NCBI GenBank assembly: GCA_043815525.1
Contig: JBDRIZ010000225.1
Span: 1 to 9,943, forward strand
Direction: 5' to 3'
DNA from: Candidatus Woesearchaeota archaeon
GTDB taxonomy: Archaea > Nanobdellota > Nanobdellia > Woesearchaeales > JAZDKJ01
Length of the DNA stretch: 9,943 nucleotides
This document shows, in pieces, positions 2,942 to 8,291 of the stretch. Numbering within the stretch: the stretch's first letter is position 1; each line of letters opens with the position of its first letter. Under the pieces are notes generated by a model. The model was not told where the DNA came from, ran no database searches, and was given only the letters and a program-made list of their open reading frames with translations. The position numbers were made by a program, and so were the translations under genes.

Positions 2942-3538
2942 TTATGATAGCCCAAGACCCTGTAGCGATTTTGCGAGTTTTTCCGGGCCCTCGTACAATA
3001 TTCCAGTCATTCCGACAGACCTTGCCTTGTTAACAAAAAGTTTCACATCATCAATGAAAACGCACTCCTGGGGAAGTACATTTAGCATCTCAGCTGCAAG
3101 GAGAAAAATCCTCTCGTCATCCTTTGTCATCTGCAGCTCGCTTGACAGGAGCACAACATCAAACATGTCATAAAGGCCAGCGGTGCGGTGAATCTCAGCA
3201 TGCTGGGGTATAGTGTTGGATATTATGCCTATCTGGTATCTTGGTTTAAGCGACAACGCTATATCAAGAACCTGCCTGTTTATCTTAGTGAGATTGGCAA
3301 ATTTCTCCACCCATACACTGTGCAAGCTGGAATCATCCAATTGAATCTTGTATTTTCTCCTGAGCTGTTGCCAGAAATCCTCAAGGGTGACCTCTCCCCT
3401 GCATAAGGGAAGGCACAAGATGTTAATCTCCTCCCAGAACTTTCTCTGGTCTTGAGGCTTGAATATGTCAAAGAGCCATTTTCCGAAATCAGCAAAGTCA
3501 ACAAGGACTCCGCCAGCATCGAAGAGGACTGCTTTCAT
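2942..3538 (-). CDS. HAD-superfamily hydrolase (subfamily IA-like, YihX-type DxG motif I)
   Basis: Motif I is MKAVLFDAGGVL, motif II is IISNT, a Lys occurs in MTKDD, and motif IV is FIDDV. The track start at 3616 is TTG and would overlap the upstream gene. The ATG at 3538 puts the nucleophile Asp at residue 7 and sits about 27 nt from a TATA-like box. An alternative ATG is at 3562. Confidence 0.85.
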   Translation of the reverse strand: MKAVLFDAGGVLVDFADFGKWLFDIFKPQDQRKFWEEINILCLPLCRGEVTLEDFWQQLRRKYKIQLDDSSLHSVWVEKFANLTKINRQVLDIALSLKPRYQIGIISNTIPQHAEIHRTAGLYDMFDVVLLSSELQMTKDDERIFLLAAEMLNVLPQECVFIDDVKLFVNKARSVGMTGILYEGPEKLAKSLQGLGLS

Positions 3539-3560
3539 ACTGATATGCTGCTTATAGCGC

Positions 3561-3570
3561 ATATAATAAT
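3561..3570 (-). promoter_or_regulatory. Candidate TATA box (ATTATTATAT on minus strand) for the HAD gene
   Basis: It lies in the 49-nt gap between the methyltransferase stop (3588) and the ATG at 3538, with about 27 nt spacing. Confidence 0.35.
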
Positions 3571-3587
3571 CTTGTGCAAGGATTTTC

Positions 3588-4304
3588 TCAGAGAATCCTT
3601 TTTTCTGCAGAGACAATCAAATACTCAAGCGAGGCATATTTACCTTGTTGGCACTGCTCTGTCAAGAGATTTGGCATAATAGGTGCAGCCAGCTCAAACC
3701 AGTTTGATAAAGCAGAACTATATGTTTCCCACGGCCTGTGAAAATAGTATTCAATGTGGTGGCTGCTGTTAGTGAGGTTGAAAACCCAAGGCCTAGTTTC
3801 TTGTTTCCAATAGTTTGAATAGTCTTTATAGCAAAGTCCGGAATCGATATCCCATTTCTCTGCATAAGGGCTGACTATGGAAAGCAATAGCCTACCACTA
3901 GGAGCAAGAACCCTATGCACCTCAGCAATAGCCCTGCGAAAATCCTCAATGACATGCAGGGCATTGAATGAAAGCACATAATCAAACTTATTGCTATGAA
4001 AAGGAAGGTCTGTAGCTATGGAACGAGCAACAGGCATTATTTCAGATGCTGTTGCAAGTAATTTTGGCGAATTATCAATGCCAACAACAGACGCACCCAT
4101 TTCTTTTGCCAATTCACCAAATCTACCATTGCCACAGCAATAATCCAGAATCTTACTGCTAACCAAATTCTCTTTTTGCAGCAAGGAATTGACTATTCCA
4201 GGGAAAAAATCTGTCTCTGGAAGGTACAATCCATTCTGCATGGCATCAATCCAGAAATTCTCTCCAGCCCAACTAGAAACCTGCTTCAAATAATACACAC
4301 CCAT
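3588..4304 (-). CDS. Class I SAM-dependent methyltransferase (Methyltransf_11-like)
   Basis: Motif I is ILDYCCGNG, followed by the acidic post-I VVGIDNS, FDYVLSFNALHVI and VLAPSGRLLLS. The track start at 4319 is TTG. The ATG at 4304 is preceded by GAGGA with a 9-nt spacer. An alternative ATG at 4241 would remove the overlap with the upstream gene. Confidence 0.85.
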   Translation of the reverse strand: MGVYYLKQVSSWAGENFWIDAMQNGLYLPETDFFPGIVNSLLQKENLVSSKILDYCCGNGRFGELAKEMGASVVGIDNSPKLLATASEIMPVARSIATDLPFHSNKFDYVLSFNALHVIEDFRRAIAEVHRVLAPSGRLLLSIVSPYAEKWDIDSGLCYKDYSNYWKQETRPWVFNLTNSSHHIEYYFHRPWETYSSALSNWFELAAPIMPNLLTEQCQQGKYASLEYLIVSAEKRIL

Positions 4305-5016
4305 ACAAATGGTCCTCAAAATCGTTATCCAAGAATTTTGAATAGCATACCTTTGGAGTCACAACAAGGTTATTAGTGATCTTCATTGGAAATCCAATCC
4401 TGAATTCAGCATGGCTCAGACCACTTCTTTCCCTATAGTAATGGCTATTATATCCCAAAGCAACTTCAAGTGAGACAGGCAATCCTTTCAAAACACGGCC
4501 TGCAGAAAACTCAGCATATGTTCCCTTGCCGTCACCAAAATCATGGACTACACACAAAGAAGGATTTAACAATACATCCAAACCCATTCTTGCATATACC
4601 TCCTGCGTATCCTTAGAAAATGTGTTTGGAAAAGTCAGGTACGTGTATCCAAGAGAAACAGAGGTTCTTCCAATGGTCTTGCTGAAATCAACCGTCAGGT
4701 TAGCTTCGTTAGGCAATCTTTGCTCAGAATCAATATTCAGGAATCCAATAACAGTAAAATCTCCATATGAGTTTGAGTGGGTTGCGGATATACTGGGTTG
4801 GATAACCGGCCCCTTGGAATATTGGAAACCTCTTGAAACATACTTTGACAATAAGTCAACATTCAAACATGAATTTAGTGATCTATCAGTTCCAGCCTCA
4901 ACTGTATTTTTCTGCTTTAAATCTTTTGCAGGTTCCGCTGGCCAGGTAGGTCCTGGTGCAATAAAAAAATGGAATGCTGCAACAGCAGTTGCCAATAAAA
5001 TATTGACGCTTTTCAT
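4273..5016 (-). CDS. Secreted beta-barrel outer-membrane-protein-like protein (resembles the bacterial TIGR02001/Gcw_chp family)
   Basis: N-terminal signal peptide MKSVNILLATAVAAFHFFIA. The motif NVDLLSKYVSRGFQYSKGPVIQPS resembles the S-DY-x-RG-x-SQ...PA-QG signature of Gcw_chp. About 10-12 amphipathic strands show alternating hydrophobicity. The C-terminus VLFEAGF ends in Phe. Confidence 0.8.
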   Translation of the reverse strand: MKSVNILLATAVAAFHFFIAPGPTWPAEPAKDLKQKNTVEAGTDRSLNSCLNVDLLSKYVSRGFQYSKGPVIQPSISATHSNSYGDFTVIGFLNIDSEQRLPNEANLTVDFSKTIGRTSVSLGYTYLTFPNTFSKDTQEVYARMGLDVLLNPSLCVVHDFGDGKGTYAEFSAGRVLKGLPVSLEVALGYNSHYYRERSGLSHAEFRIGFPMKITNNLVVTPKVCYSKFLDNDFEDHLYGCVLFEAGF

Positions 5017-5048
5017 TTTGTAAACCTATATGATTGTGATAATTAGTT

Positions 5049-5058
5049 ACTATATAGT
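5049..5058 (-). promoter_or_regulatory. Candidate TATA box (palindromic ACTATATAGT) for the beta-barrel gene
   Basis: It lies about 37 nt upstream of the ATG at 5016, which would leave a short leader containing AGGT. Confidence 0.3.
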
Positions 5059-5081
5059 AGTACTTTTATATATGTTTATGC

Positions 5082-5097
5082 TGTCGTTTTTACGACA
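5082..5097. promoter_or_regulatory. Perfect inverted repeat TGTCGT-N4-ACGACA in the divergent control region; candidate operator
   Basis: Seen directly in the sequence, between the two divergent TATA candidates and just upstream of the TrmB-family gene. It occurs only once in the window. Confidence 0.3.
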
Positions 5098-5102
5098 ACA
5101 AG

Positions 5103-5112
5103 ATTATTATAG
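5103..5112 (+). promoter_or_regulatory. Candidate TATA box (ATTATTATAG) for the TrmB-family gene
   Basis: Nearly the same sequence as the HAD candidate box. It lies about 26 nt upstream of the ATG at 5134. An alternative box TTTTATATAT at 5064-5073 would serve the ATG at 5116. Confidence 0.35.
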
Positions 5113-5133
5113 GAGATGCCCATCTTTCCATCA

Positions 5134-5856
5134 ATGGACATAAAAAATACGCTTAAAGACATTGGACTTTCTGAAGGCGAAGCCGAGACATACCTCGCGC
5201 TCCTAAAGCTTGGAAGTGTAGCTGCAAGCAAGATAAAGGAAGAGACTGGCCTGCACAGAACAACAATATACGACTTCCTGGAAAAACTCGTGAACAAAGG
5301 ACTAGCCAATTTTGTGATAGTAGAGAACGTAAAGCAATACAAGGCAGTACACCCACAAAAGCTTATTGAATACTTGAAAGAAAAAGAAGAGAATGTATCT
5401 GAGATGATGCCAGAGATTCTAAAACTAATGACAACGGAAAAGACAACTCTTGAAGTTGAGGTACATAAAGGAAATGAGGGATTCAAATTTCTGCTAAACG
5501 ACCTTCTGGCTGTAAGACAAGAATATGTGGGTTTTGGAATCGATGAATCCATGTTCCAGCATAGATTTCCTGTATTGATGGAACAGTACTTCAACAAGGA
5601 AGAAAAACTTGGAATCAAAAACAGGCTACTCACAAGTGAAAATGCCATGTATACCTACAAGAGGAAGCACATTCAATACAGGTATGTACCAAGCGAATTC
5701 TTTGGGCCAACACCGACAGTTGTATATGGAAACAGAGTGGCAATACTAATCTGGGAACCATTTACATTGATAGTAATCAAAAACCAAGGGTTAGCAGACA
5801 GCTACAGGGGCCATTTTGAAATGCTTTGGAAAACTGCAAAAAAAAGGCAGCAATAA
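5134..5856 (+). CDS. TrmB-family transcriptional regulator (winged HTH plus C-terminal effector-type domain)
   Basis: The N-terminus LKDIGLSEGEAETYLALLKLGSVAASKIKEETGLHRTTIYDFLEKLVNKGL is a classic TrmB wHTH. The start is ambiguous: ATG 5116 has AGGAG directly abutting with zero spacer, while ATG 5134 fits leaderless spacing. Confidence 0.9.
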   Translation: MDIKNTLKDIGLSEGEAETYLALLKLGSVAASKIKEETGLHRTTIYDFLEKLVNKGLANFVIVENVKQYKAVHPQKLIEYLKEKEENVSEMMPEILKLMTTEKTTLEVEVHKGNEGFKFLLNDLLAVRQEYVGFGIDESMFQHRFPVLMEQYFNKEEKLGIKNRLLTSENAMYTYKRKHIQYRYVPSEFFGPTPTVVYGNRVAILIWEPFTLIVIKNQGLADSYRGHFEMLWKTAKKRQQ

Positions 5857-5869
5857 CCTCAAGACTTTT

Positions 5870-6850
5870 TCACTTATTCTCCTCAAAGATATGCCCTGGA
5901 AGAAAACCCTTCCTGTAGTACTGGAAGAACTCCATGATGTTGAAGGTCTCGATAATGTCAGCAAACTGCTCCCTTAGATGCACTGTTATCATCCGGATTT
6001 TTGACTTGTCAAAGCTTTCGATATCTATCTCCAAATCCCAGTCTCCAACAGTCTTGTTCACCTGCACAATCTCTGGCGTATCCCTGAGAAAATCCATCAG
6101 GGCGCTCTCCCTTTCAATGCCATGATTGTGCAGCTTTAAAAAAAGCCTGAACTTGAAGATGCCAAGCCTTGAGCAGTTGACAACAAACTTGAAAGCCCTG
6201 ATGACTCGCCTTTCTTTGAGGTTCTTTATTATGGAAGACACTGTTGGTATGCTTATCCGTGACTGCCGGCTAAGAGAATTGATGCGAATCCTTGCATTTT
6301 CGTTAAGAAGCCGCATCACGGCAAATTCTGGCATACTGAAAGACTCGACAGCGCGGTCTCCTCCAACAATGATCTCAGGAGAAAACTCAGGTATATCCCT
6401 TCCTATCAGGTACAGCCTTGGATAGATATGGGTCACAATGTTGAGCACAATCTTGAAATTATTAAGGGTCGGGACAAGGCTCACAAGAAACCTCAAGTCC
6501 TTATTGAACCTTGAAGGGTTGAAAGACTCCATCTCAATGCAAAGGTCAAACTCTCCTGTGAGCTCATAAATCGAGACAACAGAGGAGCTCGACGAGAGCT
6601 TGTCTATGATGCTCGACTTTTCCTTCTCACTCACATAACCTCCCTTGAAATATACGCGGAAAAGAAGCAGGCCAAAATAAGAGTAGTCAAAAACGCAGTG
6701 AGGATTAGAAACAATGCCTGCCTTCTCCAAGCTAAAAACAGAATACTTCAGGCGCTGACTTGTCTTTTTCAATGATGAGGCGAGGTCAGAAATCTTCACA
6801 CGAGCGTTCTCCGAGTAAAGAAAAATCAATTCTGTGTCTGTACGCTTCAC
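5870..6850 (-). CDS. Fused tandem Lrp/AsnC-family regulator (two HTH plus RAM modules in one 326-aa polypeptide)
   Basis: Module 1 has TELIFLYSENARVKISDLASSL...YELTGEFDLCIEME. Module 2 has FAVMRLLNENARIRINSLSRQS...NKTVGDWDLEIDIE. The only plausible start is GTG at 6850; there is no in-frame ATG before residue 107. Confidence 0.85.
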   Translation of the reverse strand: MKRTDTELIFLYSENARVKISDLASSLKKTSQRLKYSVFSLEKAGIVSNPHCVFDYSYFGLLLFRVYFKGGYVSEKEKSSIIDKLSSSSSVVSIYELTGEFDLCIEMESFNPSRFNKDLRFLVSLVPTLNNFKIVLNIVTHIYPRLYLIGRDIPEFSPEIIVGGDRAVESFSMPEFAVMRLLNENARIRINSLSRQSRISIPTVSSIIKNLKERRVIRAFKFVVNCSRLGIFKFRLFLKLHNHGIERESALMDFLRDTPEIVQVNKTVGDWDLEIDIESFDKSKIRMITVHLREQFADIIETFNIMEFFQYYRKGFLPGHIFEENK

Positions 6851-7376: not shown

Positions 7377-7712
7377 CTATGACCTTAACTGAAGAATCGC
7401 CTGCGCAAGATCCCCTTTTGACTCCTTGATTGATTTTAGAGCAGCATCCCTCTCAACACCTGCCTGCTCCATCACTGTCTTGATGTCTTCTTCGCCAATT
7501 TCTGGCTCTGTAGAAAGGGACCTTTCCATTTCCTTGCCAGAAATCTGGTAAGAAGTAGATCCCATCATGTTGACCTTTGCGACCTGGGGGTCAGAAATGA
7601 CTATCTCCTTATCATCAGTTCTAATAACCACTTCCCTTGCAGGGATGTCCACCTGAGAAACGCCCATGCGCTTCATAGCCTGCTGCATCTGACGCTGATT
7701 GAACTGCATCAT
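7377..7712 (-). CDS. nac: Nascent polypeptide-associated complex protein (archaeal NAC alpha; NAC domain plus UBA domain)
   Basis: QMQQAMKRMGV...REVVIRTDDKEIVISDPQVAKVNMMG..YQISG is followed by a C-terminal UBA-like EEDIKTVMEQAGVERDAALKSIKESKGDLAQAILQL. This is a close pattern match to archaeal NAC. Confidence 0.95.
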   Translation of the reverse strand: MMQFNQRQMQQAMKRMGVSQVDIPAREVVIRTDDKEIVISDPQVAKVNMMGSTSYQISGKEMERSLSTEPEIGEEDIKTVMEQAGVERDAALKSIKESKGDLAQAILQLRS

Positions 7713-7879
7713 TGTAAAAGAAACCCAAAATAAGCGTGCAAGAAAACAGAGATGAATATGACAACAACCACCAGGATTATGATATGGCCTGGCTTGAACT
7801 CAATCTTTGACTTGTAGTCATCAAAGTACCTTGTAATACCAGCAGTGCTTGTCGGCATCGAAATCTTGTCTTGAGCCAT
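7709..7879 (-). CDS. secG: Preprotein translocase subunit Sec61-beta (archaeal SecG)
   Basis: The product MAQDKISMPTSTAGITRYFDDYKSKIEFKPGHIIILVVVVIFISVFLHAYFGFLLQ carries the S-AG-I-RYFD motif plus a single C-terminal TM. The longer track ORF (to 7996) runs into the RNase P RNA. The stop TGA overlaps the nac ATG as ATGA at 7709-7712. Confidence 0.9.
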   Translation of the reverse strand: MAQDKISMPTSTAGITRYFDDYKSKIEFKPGHIIILVVVVIFISVFLHAYFGFLLQ

Positions 7880-7903
7880 TTTATTCTTGTGAAACAACCC
7901 TAT

Positions 7904-7913
7904 CTTATAAAAA
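7904..7913 (-). promoter_or_regulatory. Candidate TATA box (TTTTTATAAG on minus strand) for secG-nac
   Basis: It lies about 30 nt upstream of the ATG at 7879 and begins 4 nt after the last P1 base of the RNase P RNA. Confidence 0.5.
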
Positions 7914-7917
7914 TTTC

Positions 7918-8291
7918 GGTAGGAACAAAATAAGCCGCCTTCTGTAAAGGCCCAAAGCATGCTATAAGCATGCCGATGGCCTTCCTTAGCATTCAACTAA
8001 GCGTCGTAAGACTTGCACCAGCCAGGGCTTGCCGTTTCACCGAATCCATTGACGACGTCGGCAGGTTACGTCAAGGTTTCCTTGACGTGCCAGAAATATA
8101 ATTTCTGAGCATCTTGAATCCTGTCACCAGGACCTTCGCATGCCTCATTCCATTTGCCAATGGCCGTTTCGTTTCTGCGCAGTTGCCGCCTGTTTCCAAG
8201 CCTCCTATAGAGTGGCCATAATGCAGCAAAAGCTGCAATGGTGGGCGGACTTTCCTCACCTTATAGGCGAGAGCTAAGTTCTGTTCCTACC
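7918..8291 (-). ncRNA. rnpB: RNase P RNA, archaeal type (about 374 nt)
   Basis: All read on the minus strand. P1 pairs 5' GGUAGGAACAG (8291-8281) with 3' UUGUUCCUACC (7928-7918). A small P3 hairpin is UCGCC-UAUAA-GGUGA. CR-I is GAGGAAAGUCCGCCC (8257-8243). CR-V is ACAGAAGGCGGCUUAU (7945-7930), and its GGCGG pairs with CCGCC to form P4. P2 pairs CUUAGC with GCUAAG. A terminal hairpin is AAGGCC...GCAUGC-UUAUA-GCAUGC...GGCCUU. A TATA box lies 27 nt upstream. Confidence 0.92.

Follow-up and report, generated by a model that had tools for sequence, protein, structure and literature searches.

Analysis of a 9,943-bp contig of Candidatus Woesearchaeota archaeon (JBDRIZ010000225.1, assembly GCA_043815525.1; the whole contig is hereafter called the window) identified a gene, at 4273–5016 on the reverse strand, for a β-barrel protein of 247 aa. 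We consider it probable that this protein is a Sec-exported, 12-stranded barrel of the Gcw_chp/TorF type, of bacterial ancestry and long resident in DPANN (Diapherotrites, Parvarchaeota, Aenigmarchaeota, Nanoarchaeota and Nanohaloarchaeota) genomes, and that it serves as a TrmB-controlled channel in a second lipid layer. Transmembrane β-barrels are regarded as characteristic of the outer membranes of bacteria and of organelles with bacterial ancestors, and Archaea are thought to have neither such barrels nor the machinery for their insertion. The presence of a DPANN barrel subfamily contradicts this usual view. The gene and its relatives provide testable handles on the envelope of ultra-small archaea, on solute exchange with their partners, and on barrel assembly in vivo without the β-barrel assembly machinery (BAM), possibly in ether-lipid membranes; on the more speculative general reading given below, they would represent the first β-barrel 'outer-membrane protein' system native to Archaea. 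In the following, L-numbers refer to related loci and P-numbers to related barrel proteins.

The open reading frame (ORF) of the barrel starts with ATG and has its stop codon at 4273–4275; the product begins MKSVNILLATAVAAFHFFIAPGP and ends LYGCVLFEAGF, directly before the stop. The sole Pfam match was PF09694 (Gcw_chp), at residues 43–220 with an E-value of 9.1e-6 and 26.3 bits against a curated cut-off of 24, and phmmer and profile searches also gave hits to PF09694-annotated proteins. When the profile of the archaeal clade (defined below) was aligned with the bacterial PF09694 profile by hhalign, the match had 100% probability and an E-value of 2.5e-45, and extended over 198 columns, corresponding to the entire barrel, with 32% identity. 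Family-level homology is therefore secure in spite of the marginal single-sequence Pfam score. PF09694 is described as 'Bacterial protein of unknown function', and the restriction to bacteria did not hold, as archaeal DNA surrounds the barrel gene both in the window and in at least 12 related loci. The exact window protein is named 'TorF family putative porin [Candidatus Woesearchaeota archaeon]' at NCBI; this automated name shows that the similarity is already present in the databases, where it has not been interpreted.

In an exhaustive HMMER search for relatives, the number of cluster representatives was 1037 for E≤1e-3, 269 for E≤1e-10 and 26 for E≤1e-30. Close relatives of the window barrel were only a handful in a word-indexed search, and the exact window protein sequence gave no match in the contig index. 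Genomic context of the relatives was read wherever their DNA was obtainable. In a quick neighbour-joining tree of 215 sequences, made without support values, the smallest clade including all context-verified archaeal sequences contained 87 tips and no context-verified bacterial sequence, and the midpoint root was located exactly between this archaeal clade and the other 128 sequences (the bacterial-type set). The phylogenetic check that had been suggested in the initial annotation thus placed the archaeal clade apart from the bacterial-type sequences. A gap was also observed in profile-search scores, which were 229–335 bits for the subfamily and at most 155 bits for the rest. The motif LSKYVxRG...VIQPS was invariant or nearly so among the relatives, the DTQEVY motif was also kept, and S57, Y59, R62, G63, V71, Q73 and E139 were invariant in 29 relatives. 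In addition, the archaeal clade has motifs of its own, HDFxxGKGxY and GYNxHY[FY]RxxSG[LF]SH; the motifs are kept over its approximately 87 clusters (clustering at 50% identity). The median length was 237 aa in the archaeal clade and 256.5 aa in the bacterial-type set, and the gaps in the hhalign alignment placed the residues missing from the archaeal proteins in the connections between strands.

The structure of the window barrel was predicted by AlphaFold2 with a 29-sequence alignment, giving a mean predicted local distance difference test score (pLDDT) of 83 and a predicted template modelling score of 0.73. The model contains an N-terminal helix at residues 4–17, a disordered segment at 16–42 and, according to DSSP, twelve strands within 46–246. 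From AlphaFold2, DSSP and Foldseek together, we assign the 12-stranded transmembrane β-barrel domain to residues 46–247 (4276–4881, reverse strand); it makes up the whole mature protein, and the model includes no passenger or extra domain. A structural search of the PDB with Foldseek (E≤0.001) yielded 131 matches, the top 50 of which were bacterial outer-membrane barrels without exception. Among proteins of similar size, the best fits were 12-stranded, namely, KdgM, PcoB and NanC (template modelling scores of 0.70, 0.68 and 0.61, target-normalised), the invasin β-domain and FapF, and the alignments to closed 12-stranded barrels ran full-length; further matches included the COG4313 hydrophobic-compound channel and autotransporter β-domains. 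One face of the predicted strands is rich in L, V, A, F and I (mean Kyte–Doolittle value +1.54; charged residues 5/66), while the other is rich in S, G, T, E, N and D (−0.73; 17/69), and this contrast was reached by only 15 of 2000 within-strand shuffles. Two such faces are characteristic of a barrel that is embedded in lipid and encloses a polar lumen. The initial annotation had proposed an outer-membrane-like barrel of about 10–12 strands and had asked for a structure prediction, which returned a 12-stranded barrel and not a non-barrel fold.

Residues 1–20 (4957–5016, reverse strand) form a putative Sec-type signal sequence, with Lys2 followed by the hydrophobic helix. An N-terminal hydrophobic 12-mer was found in 78 of the 84 complete N-termini of the archaeal clade, 76 of which also have an upstream K or R, and in the majority of clade members the hydrophobic segment is followed by a canonical A-x-A-type site, with junctions of the [AS]-x-P-x-x-A / Q-E type. 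The signal is followed by a Pro/Glu/Lys-rich linker at residues 21–45 (4882–4956, reverse strand), which is predicted to be disordered (pLDDT below 50 at 16–42). The last strand and the C-terminal aromatic motif LYGCVLFEAGF (residues 237–247; 4276–4308, reverse strand) resemble the bacterial β-signal; the corresponding motif of the clade is Y-G-G-φ-x-φ-x-φ-x-F, where φ is hydrophobic. A terminal F was found in 54 and a terminal aromatic residue in 60 of the 87 archaeal-clade members, while 101 of the 128 sequences of the bacterial-type set have this ending. The aromatic FEAGF ending pointed out previously is thus present in the window protein and frequent in the clade. Of the Sec-type signal named in the initial annotation, the n- and h-regions are present, but the signal-peptidase site of the window protein itself is non-canonical by sequence, so that its N-terminal helix could be an uncleaved anchor. 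This site would be compatible with a non-channel role, in which the barrel is an envelope anchor or scaffold, or a conduit for hydrophobic molecules or lipids, located in the cytoplasmic membrane or tethered to it by the uncleaved helix. The Foldseek matches to the COG4313 channel and to invasin and autotransporter β-domains could be taken in the same way, as could the location of the barrel gene beside isoprenoid-lipid genes (polyprenyl synthase, GHMP kinase and UbiA) on the 97.8-kb contig of L062. We regard this role as improbable, because canonical A-x-A-type sites are found in most clade members, the barrel is the entire mature protein with no passenger or extra domain, and an open barrel would be harmful in an energised cytoplasmic membrane.

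Next to the barrel, the window includes archaeal markers, namely, NAC (TIGR00264, 110 bits), Sec61β, a TrmB-family regulator and a double Lrp/AsnC regulator, and an archaeal RNase P RNA at 7921–8288 on the reverse strand (130 bits; gathering score, 84). The archaeal context described in the initial annotation was confirmed by the detection of NAC, Sec61β and the RNase P RNA. On at least 13 independent contigs, close relatives of the barrel adjoin archaeal markers such as the archaellum, MCM, L19e/L32e and NreA. The 32.7-kb contig of L001 carries an archaellum operon (FlaC_arch, archaeal flagellins and FlaH/FlaI-type ATPases) together with MCM, and on the 103-kb contig of L017 the barrel is located 1–10 kb from L19e, L32e, L5e/L18, archaeal L24P, S5, S8, L6, SecY and EMC3/DUF106. 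The 73.8-kb contig of L011 carries the TrmB of the window (61% identity) and the double Lrp/AsnC regulator, and L063, labelled 'archaeon' at NCBI (GCA_043815245.1), includes a Liv-type ATP-binding cassette (ABC) uptake cluster. For L062, the polyprenyl synthase, GHMP kinase and UbiA genes mentioned above were counted as archaeal evidence. P0056 (L012–L015; 'Nanoarchaeota archaeon' at NCBI) was found as the same protein in the same context on 11 contigs from independent NCBI, ENA and JGI assemblies. The label Woesearchaeota is also attached to P0036, P0039 and P0196, giving a tally of Woesearchaeota four times, Nanoarchaeota and 'archaeon'. The NCBI carriers are Woesearchaeota/Nanoarchaeota-type DPANN genomes, in which the subfamily has long resided and diversified.

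We then considered whether the barrel gene could be an artefact, that is, bacterial DNA misassembled onto an archaeal contig, or a decaying and functionless recent transfer. Among the 13 genes of the window, that of the barrel has the lowest G+C content at third codon positions (GC3, 0.34), its codon usage correlates only weakly with that of the others (0.35), and one clade member, P0046 of L064 (GCA_042584385.1, JBHOSX010000018.1), is labelled 'Bacteroidota bacterium'. Against this explanation, overall GC content is continuous across the gene, ten independent contigs with archaeal markers, the longest of 103 kb, carry the pair of TrmB and barrel genes with its operator, P0056 recurs on 11 contigs of different assemblies, and the ORFs are intact, with conserved motifs and a ratio of nonsynonymous to synonymous substitution rates (dN/dS) below 1. 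A chimera, which the initial annotation had raised, and contamination were rejected on the basis of the synteny on independent contigs and the continuous GC content, and we consider an artefact of any of these kinds extremely improbable. The 'Bacteroidota' contig itself carries a TrmB neighbour, NreA and an archaeal-type NucS above the cut-off, and its TrmB–barrel spacer contains a copy of the type-1 palindrome described below with one mismatch. P0046 was rejected as a bacterial member inside the clade by this archaeal context, and the L064 contig seems to be archaeal DNA that was assigned to a bacterial metagenome-assembled genome by a binning error. The module of TrmB, operator and barrel is thus a practical marker, by which this contig was exposed as archaeal.

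The loci with barrels 27–34% identical to the window protein were located in Gram-negative contexts, including AcrB/HlyD/OEP, GGDEF/EAL, response regulators and DNA polymerase III δ'. When GTDB species representatives were scanned with clade-specific patterns, five loci were detected, all of them bacterial (Pirellulales, Sedimentisphaerales, Victivallales and Pseudomonadota) and none archaeal. The archaeal carriers are therefore outside the representatives, or were missed by the patterns. The genomes of L006–L009, which share peptide motifs with the archaeal clade, belong to Pirellulales, Sedimentisphaerales and Victivallales, of the Planctomycetes–Verrucomicrobia–Chlamydiae (PVC) group. At one groundwater site, Planctomycetes and Woesearchaeota co-dominate (preprint 10.1101/2020.05.14.094862). 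The PVC group is a possible donor or partner link, although on circumstantial grounds only. Bacterial origin by inter-domain transfer, as the initial annotation suggested, is the most economical reading; the event was neither isolated nor recent, since the window gene belongs to a large, deeply diverged DPANN subfamily (the clade of 87 tips) with archaeal promoters and a dedicated TrmB. We thus read the barrel gene as one that was acquired long ago and has since been domesticated and put under regulation in archaea.

The regulator gene is located at 5116–5856 on the forward strand, divergent from the barrel gene, and its product matches PF01978 at residues 13–80 (E=4.1e-17). A TrmB gene was found divergent from the barrel gene and 100–149 nt upstream of it in 10 loci: the window, L001, L002, L011, L016, L017, L018, L062, L063 and L064. 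The TrmB copy of L002 is at the contig end, and the other nine loci were obtained from neighbour analysis; in L004, the arrangement is partly present. Within ±6 kb of the barrel genes, no other conserved neighbour (chaperone, lipoprotein or second barrel) was detected beyond TrmB, apart from Lrp/AsnC in three loci. The annotated start of the window TrmB, ATG 5116, probably precedes the true start by 18 nt, as the orthologues start at the residue aligned with Met7 (5134). In the Pfam search, no TrmB sugar-binding effector domain was found in the window regulator, PF01978 being the only significant match.

The spacer between the two genes contains a palindrome, TGTCGT-N4-ACGACA (type 1; 5082–5097), which we propose as the TrmB site. 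It is the single match in the window, compared with 0.01 expected by chance. The type-1 palindrome is identical and in the same place in L002, L017 and L062, with degenerate copies in L011 and L064, and a type-2 palindrome, CCCTGTACAGGG, takes its place in L001, L016, L018 and L063. Among 63 loci scanned, each palindrome was found once per locus and in the TrmB–barrel spacer only. The TrmB lineages match the palindrome types perfectly, with identities of 52–62% within type 1, 46–56% within type 2 and 26–33% between the types, and a conserved segment within the winged-helix region, which we take to be the recognition helix, distinguishes one lineage from the other. On the barrel side, a TATA-like box, ATATATAAAA (5064–5073, reverse strand), is located approximately 48–57 nt upstream of the barrel ATG, and a T(T/A)TA(T/A)ATA block is conserved in other loci at the same offset from the operator. 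This spacing would accommodate a short leader that includes a Shine–Dalgarno-like AGGT/GGTGA/GGAGG, and the barrel transcript is predicted to start about 20–25 nt before ATG 5016. On the TrmB side, a second TATA-like box, ATTATTATA (5103–5111, forward strand), is located 23–31 nt upstream of ATG 5134, and the same geometry is observed in L017, L062 and L064. With the TrmB start at 5134, this box would therefore be at about −27 of a leaderless transcript. The promoter role of both boxes and the geometry of promoters and operator are inferred from the DNA sequence. The presence of archaeal expression signals and a local regulator at the barrel gene is the opposite of what is expected for a freshly imported or misassembled gene.

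Further regulator genes were observed near barrel genes. In L063, five TrmB-family genes are interleaved with Peripla_BP_6, BPD_transp_2 and ABC_tran genes and the barrel gene within 17 kb (1–16807). These TrmB paralogues seem to be local regulators of individual uptake genes and, as they flank ABC-uptake genes, fit with a transport role. A double-length Lrp/AsnC regulator of 326 aa, consisting of two HTH_24/AsnC units, is located near the barrel–TrmB pair in the window (5870–6850, reverse strand), in L011 (3220–4185) and in L018.

The window and L002, its closest relative, share a syntenic block corresponding to 3050–5760 of the window, in which divergence is mosaic. The barrel proteins are 76% identical, with a dN/dS of 0.45–0.49, which indicates purifying selection, although more relaxed than that on TrmB or on the methyltransferase encoded downstream of the barrel. 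Nucleotide identity is 88–98% in the barrel core (approximately 4340–4840; dS 0.19), while divergence is far greater in the signal and linker, the spacer, the methyltransferase gene (dS 1.57) and a large part of TrmB (dS 0.86). The linker is the most divergent part of the gene, with 52–70% nucleotide identity to L002. Furthermore, the window barrel, with a type-1 regulator, is 50% identical to P0003 of type 2 but only 39% identical to L017 of type 1. The barrel similarity that does not follow TrmB type, the mosaic identity and the low GC3 together suggest that barrel cassettes may have recombined recently between related archaeal genomes.

In conjunction with the above results, we propose the following mechanism. 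A TrmB dimer would bind the palindrome in the TrmB–barrel spacer and there overlap the TFB-recognition element and TATA regions of both promoters, and the bound TrmB would adjust the expression of both genes, its own and that of the barrel, to a nutrient-type signal. After export by Sec, the barrel would fold without the help of BAM into a lipid layer beyond the cytoplasmic membrane; this layer could belong to the cell itself, as an outer layer, or be a membrane at the contact site with a partner cell. In this layer, it would act as a small passive solute channel, as the 12-stranded porins KdgM and NanC do. Location in the cell's own envelope is favoured by the signal and the C-terminal motif, both of which have been conserved broadly and stably. 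Insertion of β-barrels into bilayers without assistance has been documented, though it is slow (PMC13018214). As a general statement, that barrels of a broad group of DPANN archaea fold without BAM into a second bilayer, either an unrecognised archaeal outer membrane or that of a partner, and are switched by TrmB, we offer this proposal tentatively, as a speculative one.

Several observations weigh against a channel in a second lipid layer. No archaeon is known to have BAM/Omp85 machinery, which counts against a location in the cell's own envelope and in a partner membrane alike, and Woesearchaeota are not known to have an outer membrane. In archaeal-context flanks of approximately 150 kb, there was exactly one barrel gene per locus with no paralogous barrels, and no outer-membrane biogenesis family was seen among the Pfam hits for these flanks, which covered only part of them; the support for a true outer membrane is therefore thin. 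Barrel closure was judged by strand count and Foldseek matches and not from coordinates, the signal-peptidase site of the window protein deviates from the canonical form, and the dN/dS of the barrel is higher than that of its neighbours (TrmB 0.14, methyltransferase 0.20). As to family membership, the Pfam score is marginal, and a scan of NCBIfam, TIGR02001 included, detected no family for the barrel at E≤0.1. The archaeal subfamily is therefore too divergent for the narrower model, and the resemblance to TIGR02001/Gcw_chp stated in the initial annotation holds for PF09694, by the Pfam match above the cut-off and by hhalign, but not for NCBIfam. The archaeal clade comprises 87 tips, of which approximately 15 were verified by context or label. 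Moreover, the bacterial Gcw_chp family is itself without an experimentally defined function, and 'TorF putative porin' is an automated name that was not traceable in the literature, where searches for Gcw_chp, TIGR02001, PF09694 and TorF yielded noise only.

Some of the same observations can be viewed in favour of a partner-directed pore, in which the barrel, once exported, enters a host or partner membrane at the contact site and forms a channel for metabolite uptake. The single barrel gene per locus with no outer-membrane biogenesis genes nearby fits with this possibility, as do the flexible 25-residue linker after the N-terminal helix, the dN/dS above that of the neighbours and the 88–98% mosaic block suggesting recombination, which are common for interaction proteins. 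Most DPANN archaea live as obligate ectosymbionts and have a reduced metabolism (PMC6349945; PMC11291902), a precedent is provided by PopA, an outer-membrane protein of Bdellovibrio for which insertion into the membranes of prey has been reported (PMC12228718), and the nearest bacterial motif carriers are Planctomycetota/PVC bacteria, Planctomycetota being co-dominant with Woesearchaeota at one groundwater site, which is again circumstantial. On the other hand, the periplasmic side is where single-chain barrels normally start to fold, a delivery mechanism is not evident, the loops are shorter, and not longer or more variable, than those of the bacterial relatives (median length 237 against 256.5 aa), and no host has been established for Woesearchaeota. 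Nutrient-type TrmB control and the ABC uptake cluster of L063 fit equally well with housekeeping uptake. A partner-directed pore is a possibility that we hold to be doubtful, and a TrmB-controlled channel in a second lipid layer, whichever cell that layer belongs to, is the reading that we prefer. The results are compatible with both roles put forward in the initial annotation, a host-targeting barrel and a double-membrane archaeon, and decide for neither.

Comparison with known systems places the window protein as a divergent member of the Gcw_chp superfamily that may work like the KdgM and NanC porins without belonging to them. With the bacterial Gcw_chp/TIGR02001/TorF proteins, it shares LSKYVxRG...VIQPS, D/TQEVY, a Sec-like signal, a length of approximately 230–270 aa and a C-terminal YGG-x5-F. 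The archaeal clade differs from these proteins in its separate position, its own motifs, shorter loops and a longer linker after the signal. In addition, the archaeal barrel gene has TATA-type promoters and TrmB, while the sampled bacterial loci have RND-efflux (resistance–nodulation–division), two-component and GGDEF/EAL genes. KdgM, NanC and PcoB, the best structural fits, are likewise small monomeric 12-stranded barrels with no extra domains, but they are located in proteobacterial outer membranes and inserted by BAM. No sequence relationship of the window barrel to these three proteins was detected, as Pfam gave only PF09694 at E≤0.1 and a sequence search of the PDB gave FapF at E=1 only. 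KdgM and NanC are under the control of sugar-responsive repressors, in parallel to the pairing with TrmB described here.

Among archaeal regulators, the TrmB systems for trehalose/maltose ABC uptake in Thermococcales likewise have the regulator beside its target and a palindrome in the promoter region. In contrast to these systems, the target here is a β-barrel and not an ABC transporter, and the regulator is approximately 240 aa with no match to a sugar-binding domain. Neither TGTCGT-N4-ACGACA nor CCCTGTACAGGG is known among the operators of characterised TrmB proteins. No bacterial-type β-barrel is known among the outer-membrane pore proteins of Ignicoccus and Altiarchaeum. Both of these archaea have a second membrane (PMC6349945). 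The PopA superfamily of Bdellovibrio is a precedent for barrels resembling outer-membrane proteins beyond the classical porin role, although it is oligomeric and lipid-trapping and no sequence link to Gcw_chp has been shown; it 'may even' have a distal relative in Altiarchaeales, which are called DPANN by the authors (PMC12228718). In the literature on DPANN or Woesearchaeota combined with porin, outer membrane or β-barrel, neither a Gcw_chp-type barrel nor a β-barrel porin family was described.

Downstream of the barrel gene, a class I S-adenosylmethionine-dependent methyltransferase is encoded at 3588–4304 on the reverse strand (Methyltransf_11, E=5.6e-19). The initial annotation had described the barrel gene as interlocked with this neighbour by a 32-nt overlap. 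The overlap of the barrel 3′ end is indeed 32 nt if the methyltransferase starts at ATG 4304, and would be abolished by the use of the in-frame ATG 4241. Both the methyltransferase neighbour and the overlap were found in L002 and were absent from all other relatives, so that the interlock is limited to the two closest relatives and the conserved partner of the barrel is the divergent TrmB. A functional link between barrel and methyltransferase was rejected because the neighbour is confined to L002.

Other features were also observed in the window. An ORF of 165 aa is located antisense inside the barrel gene (4526–5023, forward strand), and is probably a by-product of the codon composition of the barrel; it was weighed as a possible cause of the low synonymous divergence there. 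The mechanically listed Sec61β ORF (7709–7996, reverse strand; TTG start at 7996) overlaps the RNase P RNA; the profile match starts from residue 39, and the real start is therefore probably near 7882, which gives no overlap with the RNA. At 36–1385 on the forward strand, a PP-loop ATPase-like protein of 449 aa is encoded, for which the best NCBIfam match was MurL (UDP-MurNAc-L-Ala-L-Glu epimerase) at E=1.3e-11, far below the cut-off. A peptidoglycan-related family would be odd in an archaeon, but this match may reflect only the shared PP-loop domain. Finally, two ORFs on the reverse strand, 1994–2458 and 2427–2909, encode proteins of 154 and 160 aa, respectively, with no Pfam family and with weakly similar N-termini (BLASTP, E=2e-4), and may represent a tandem duplication of an uncharacterised helical protein. 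The listed coordinates of these two ORFs overlap by 32 nt, just as those of the barrel and methyltransferase genes do.

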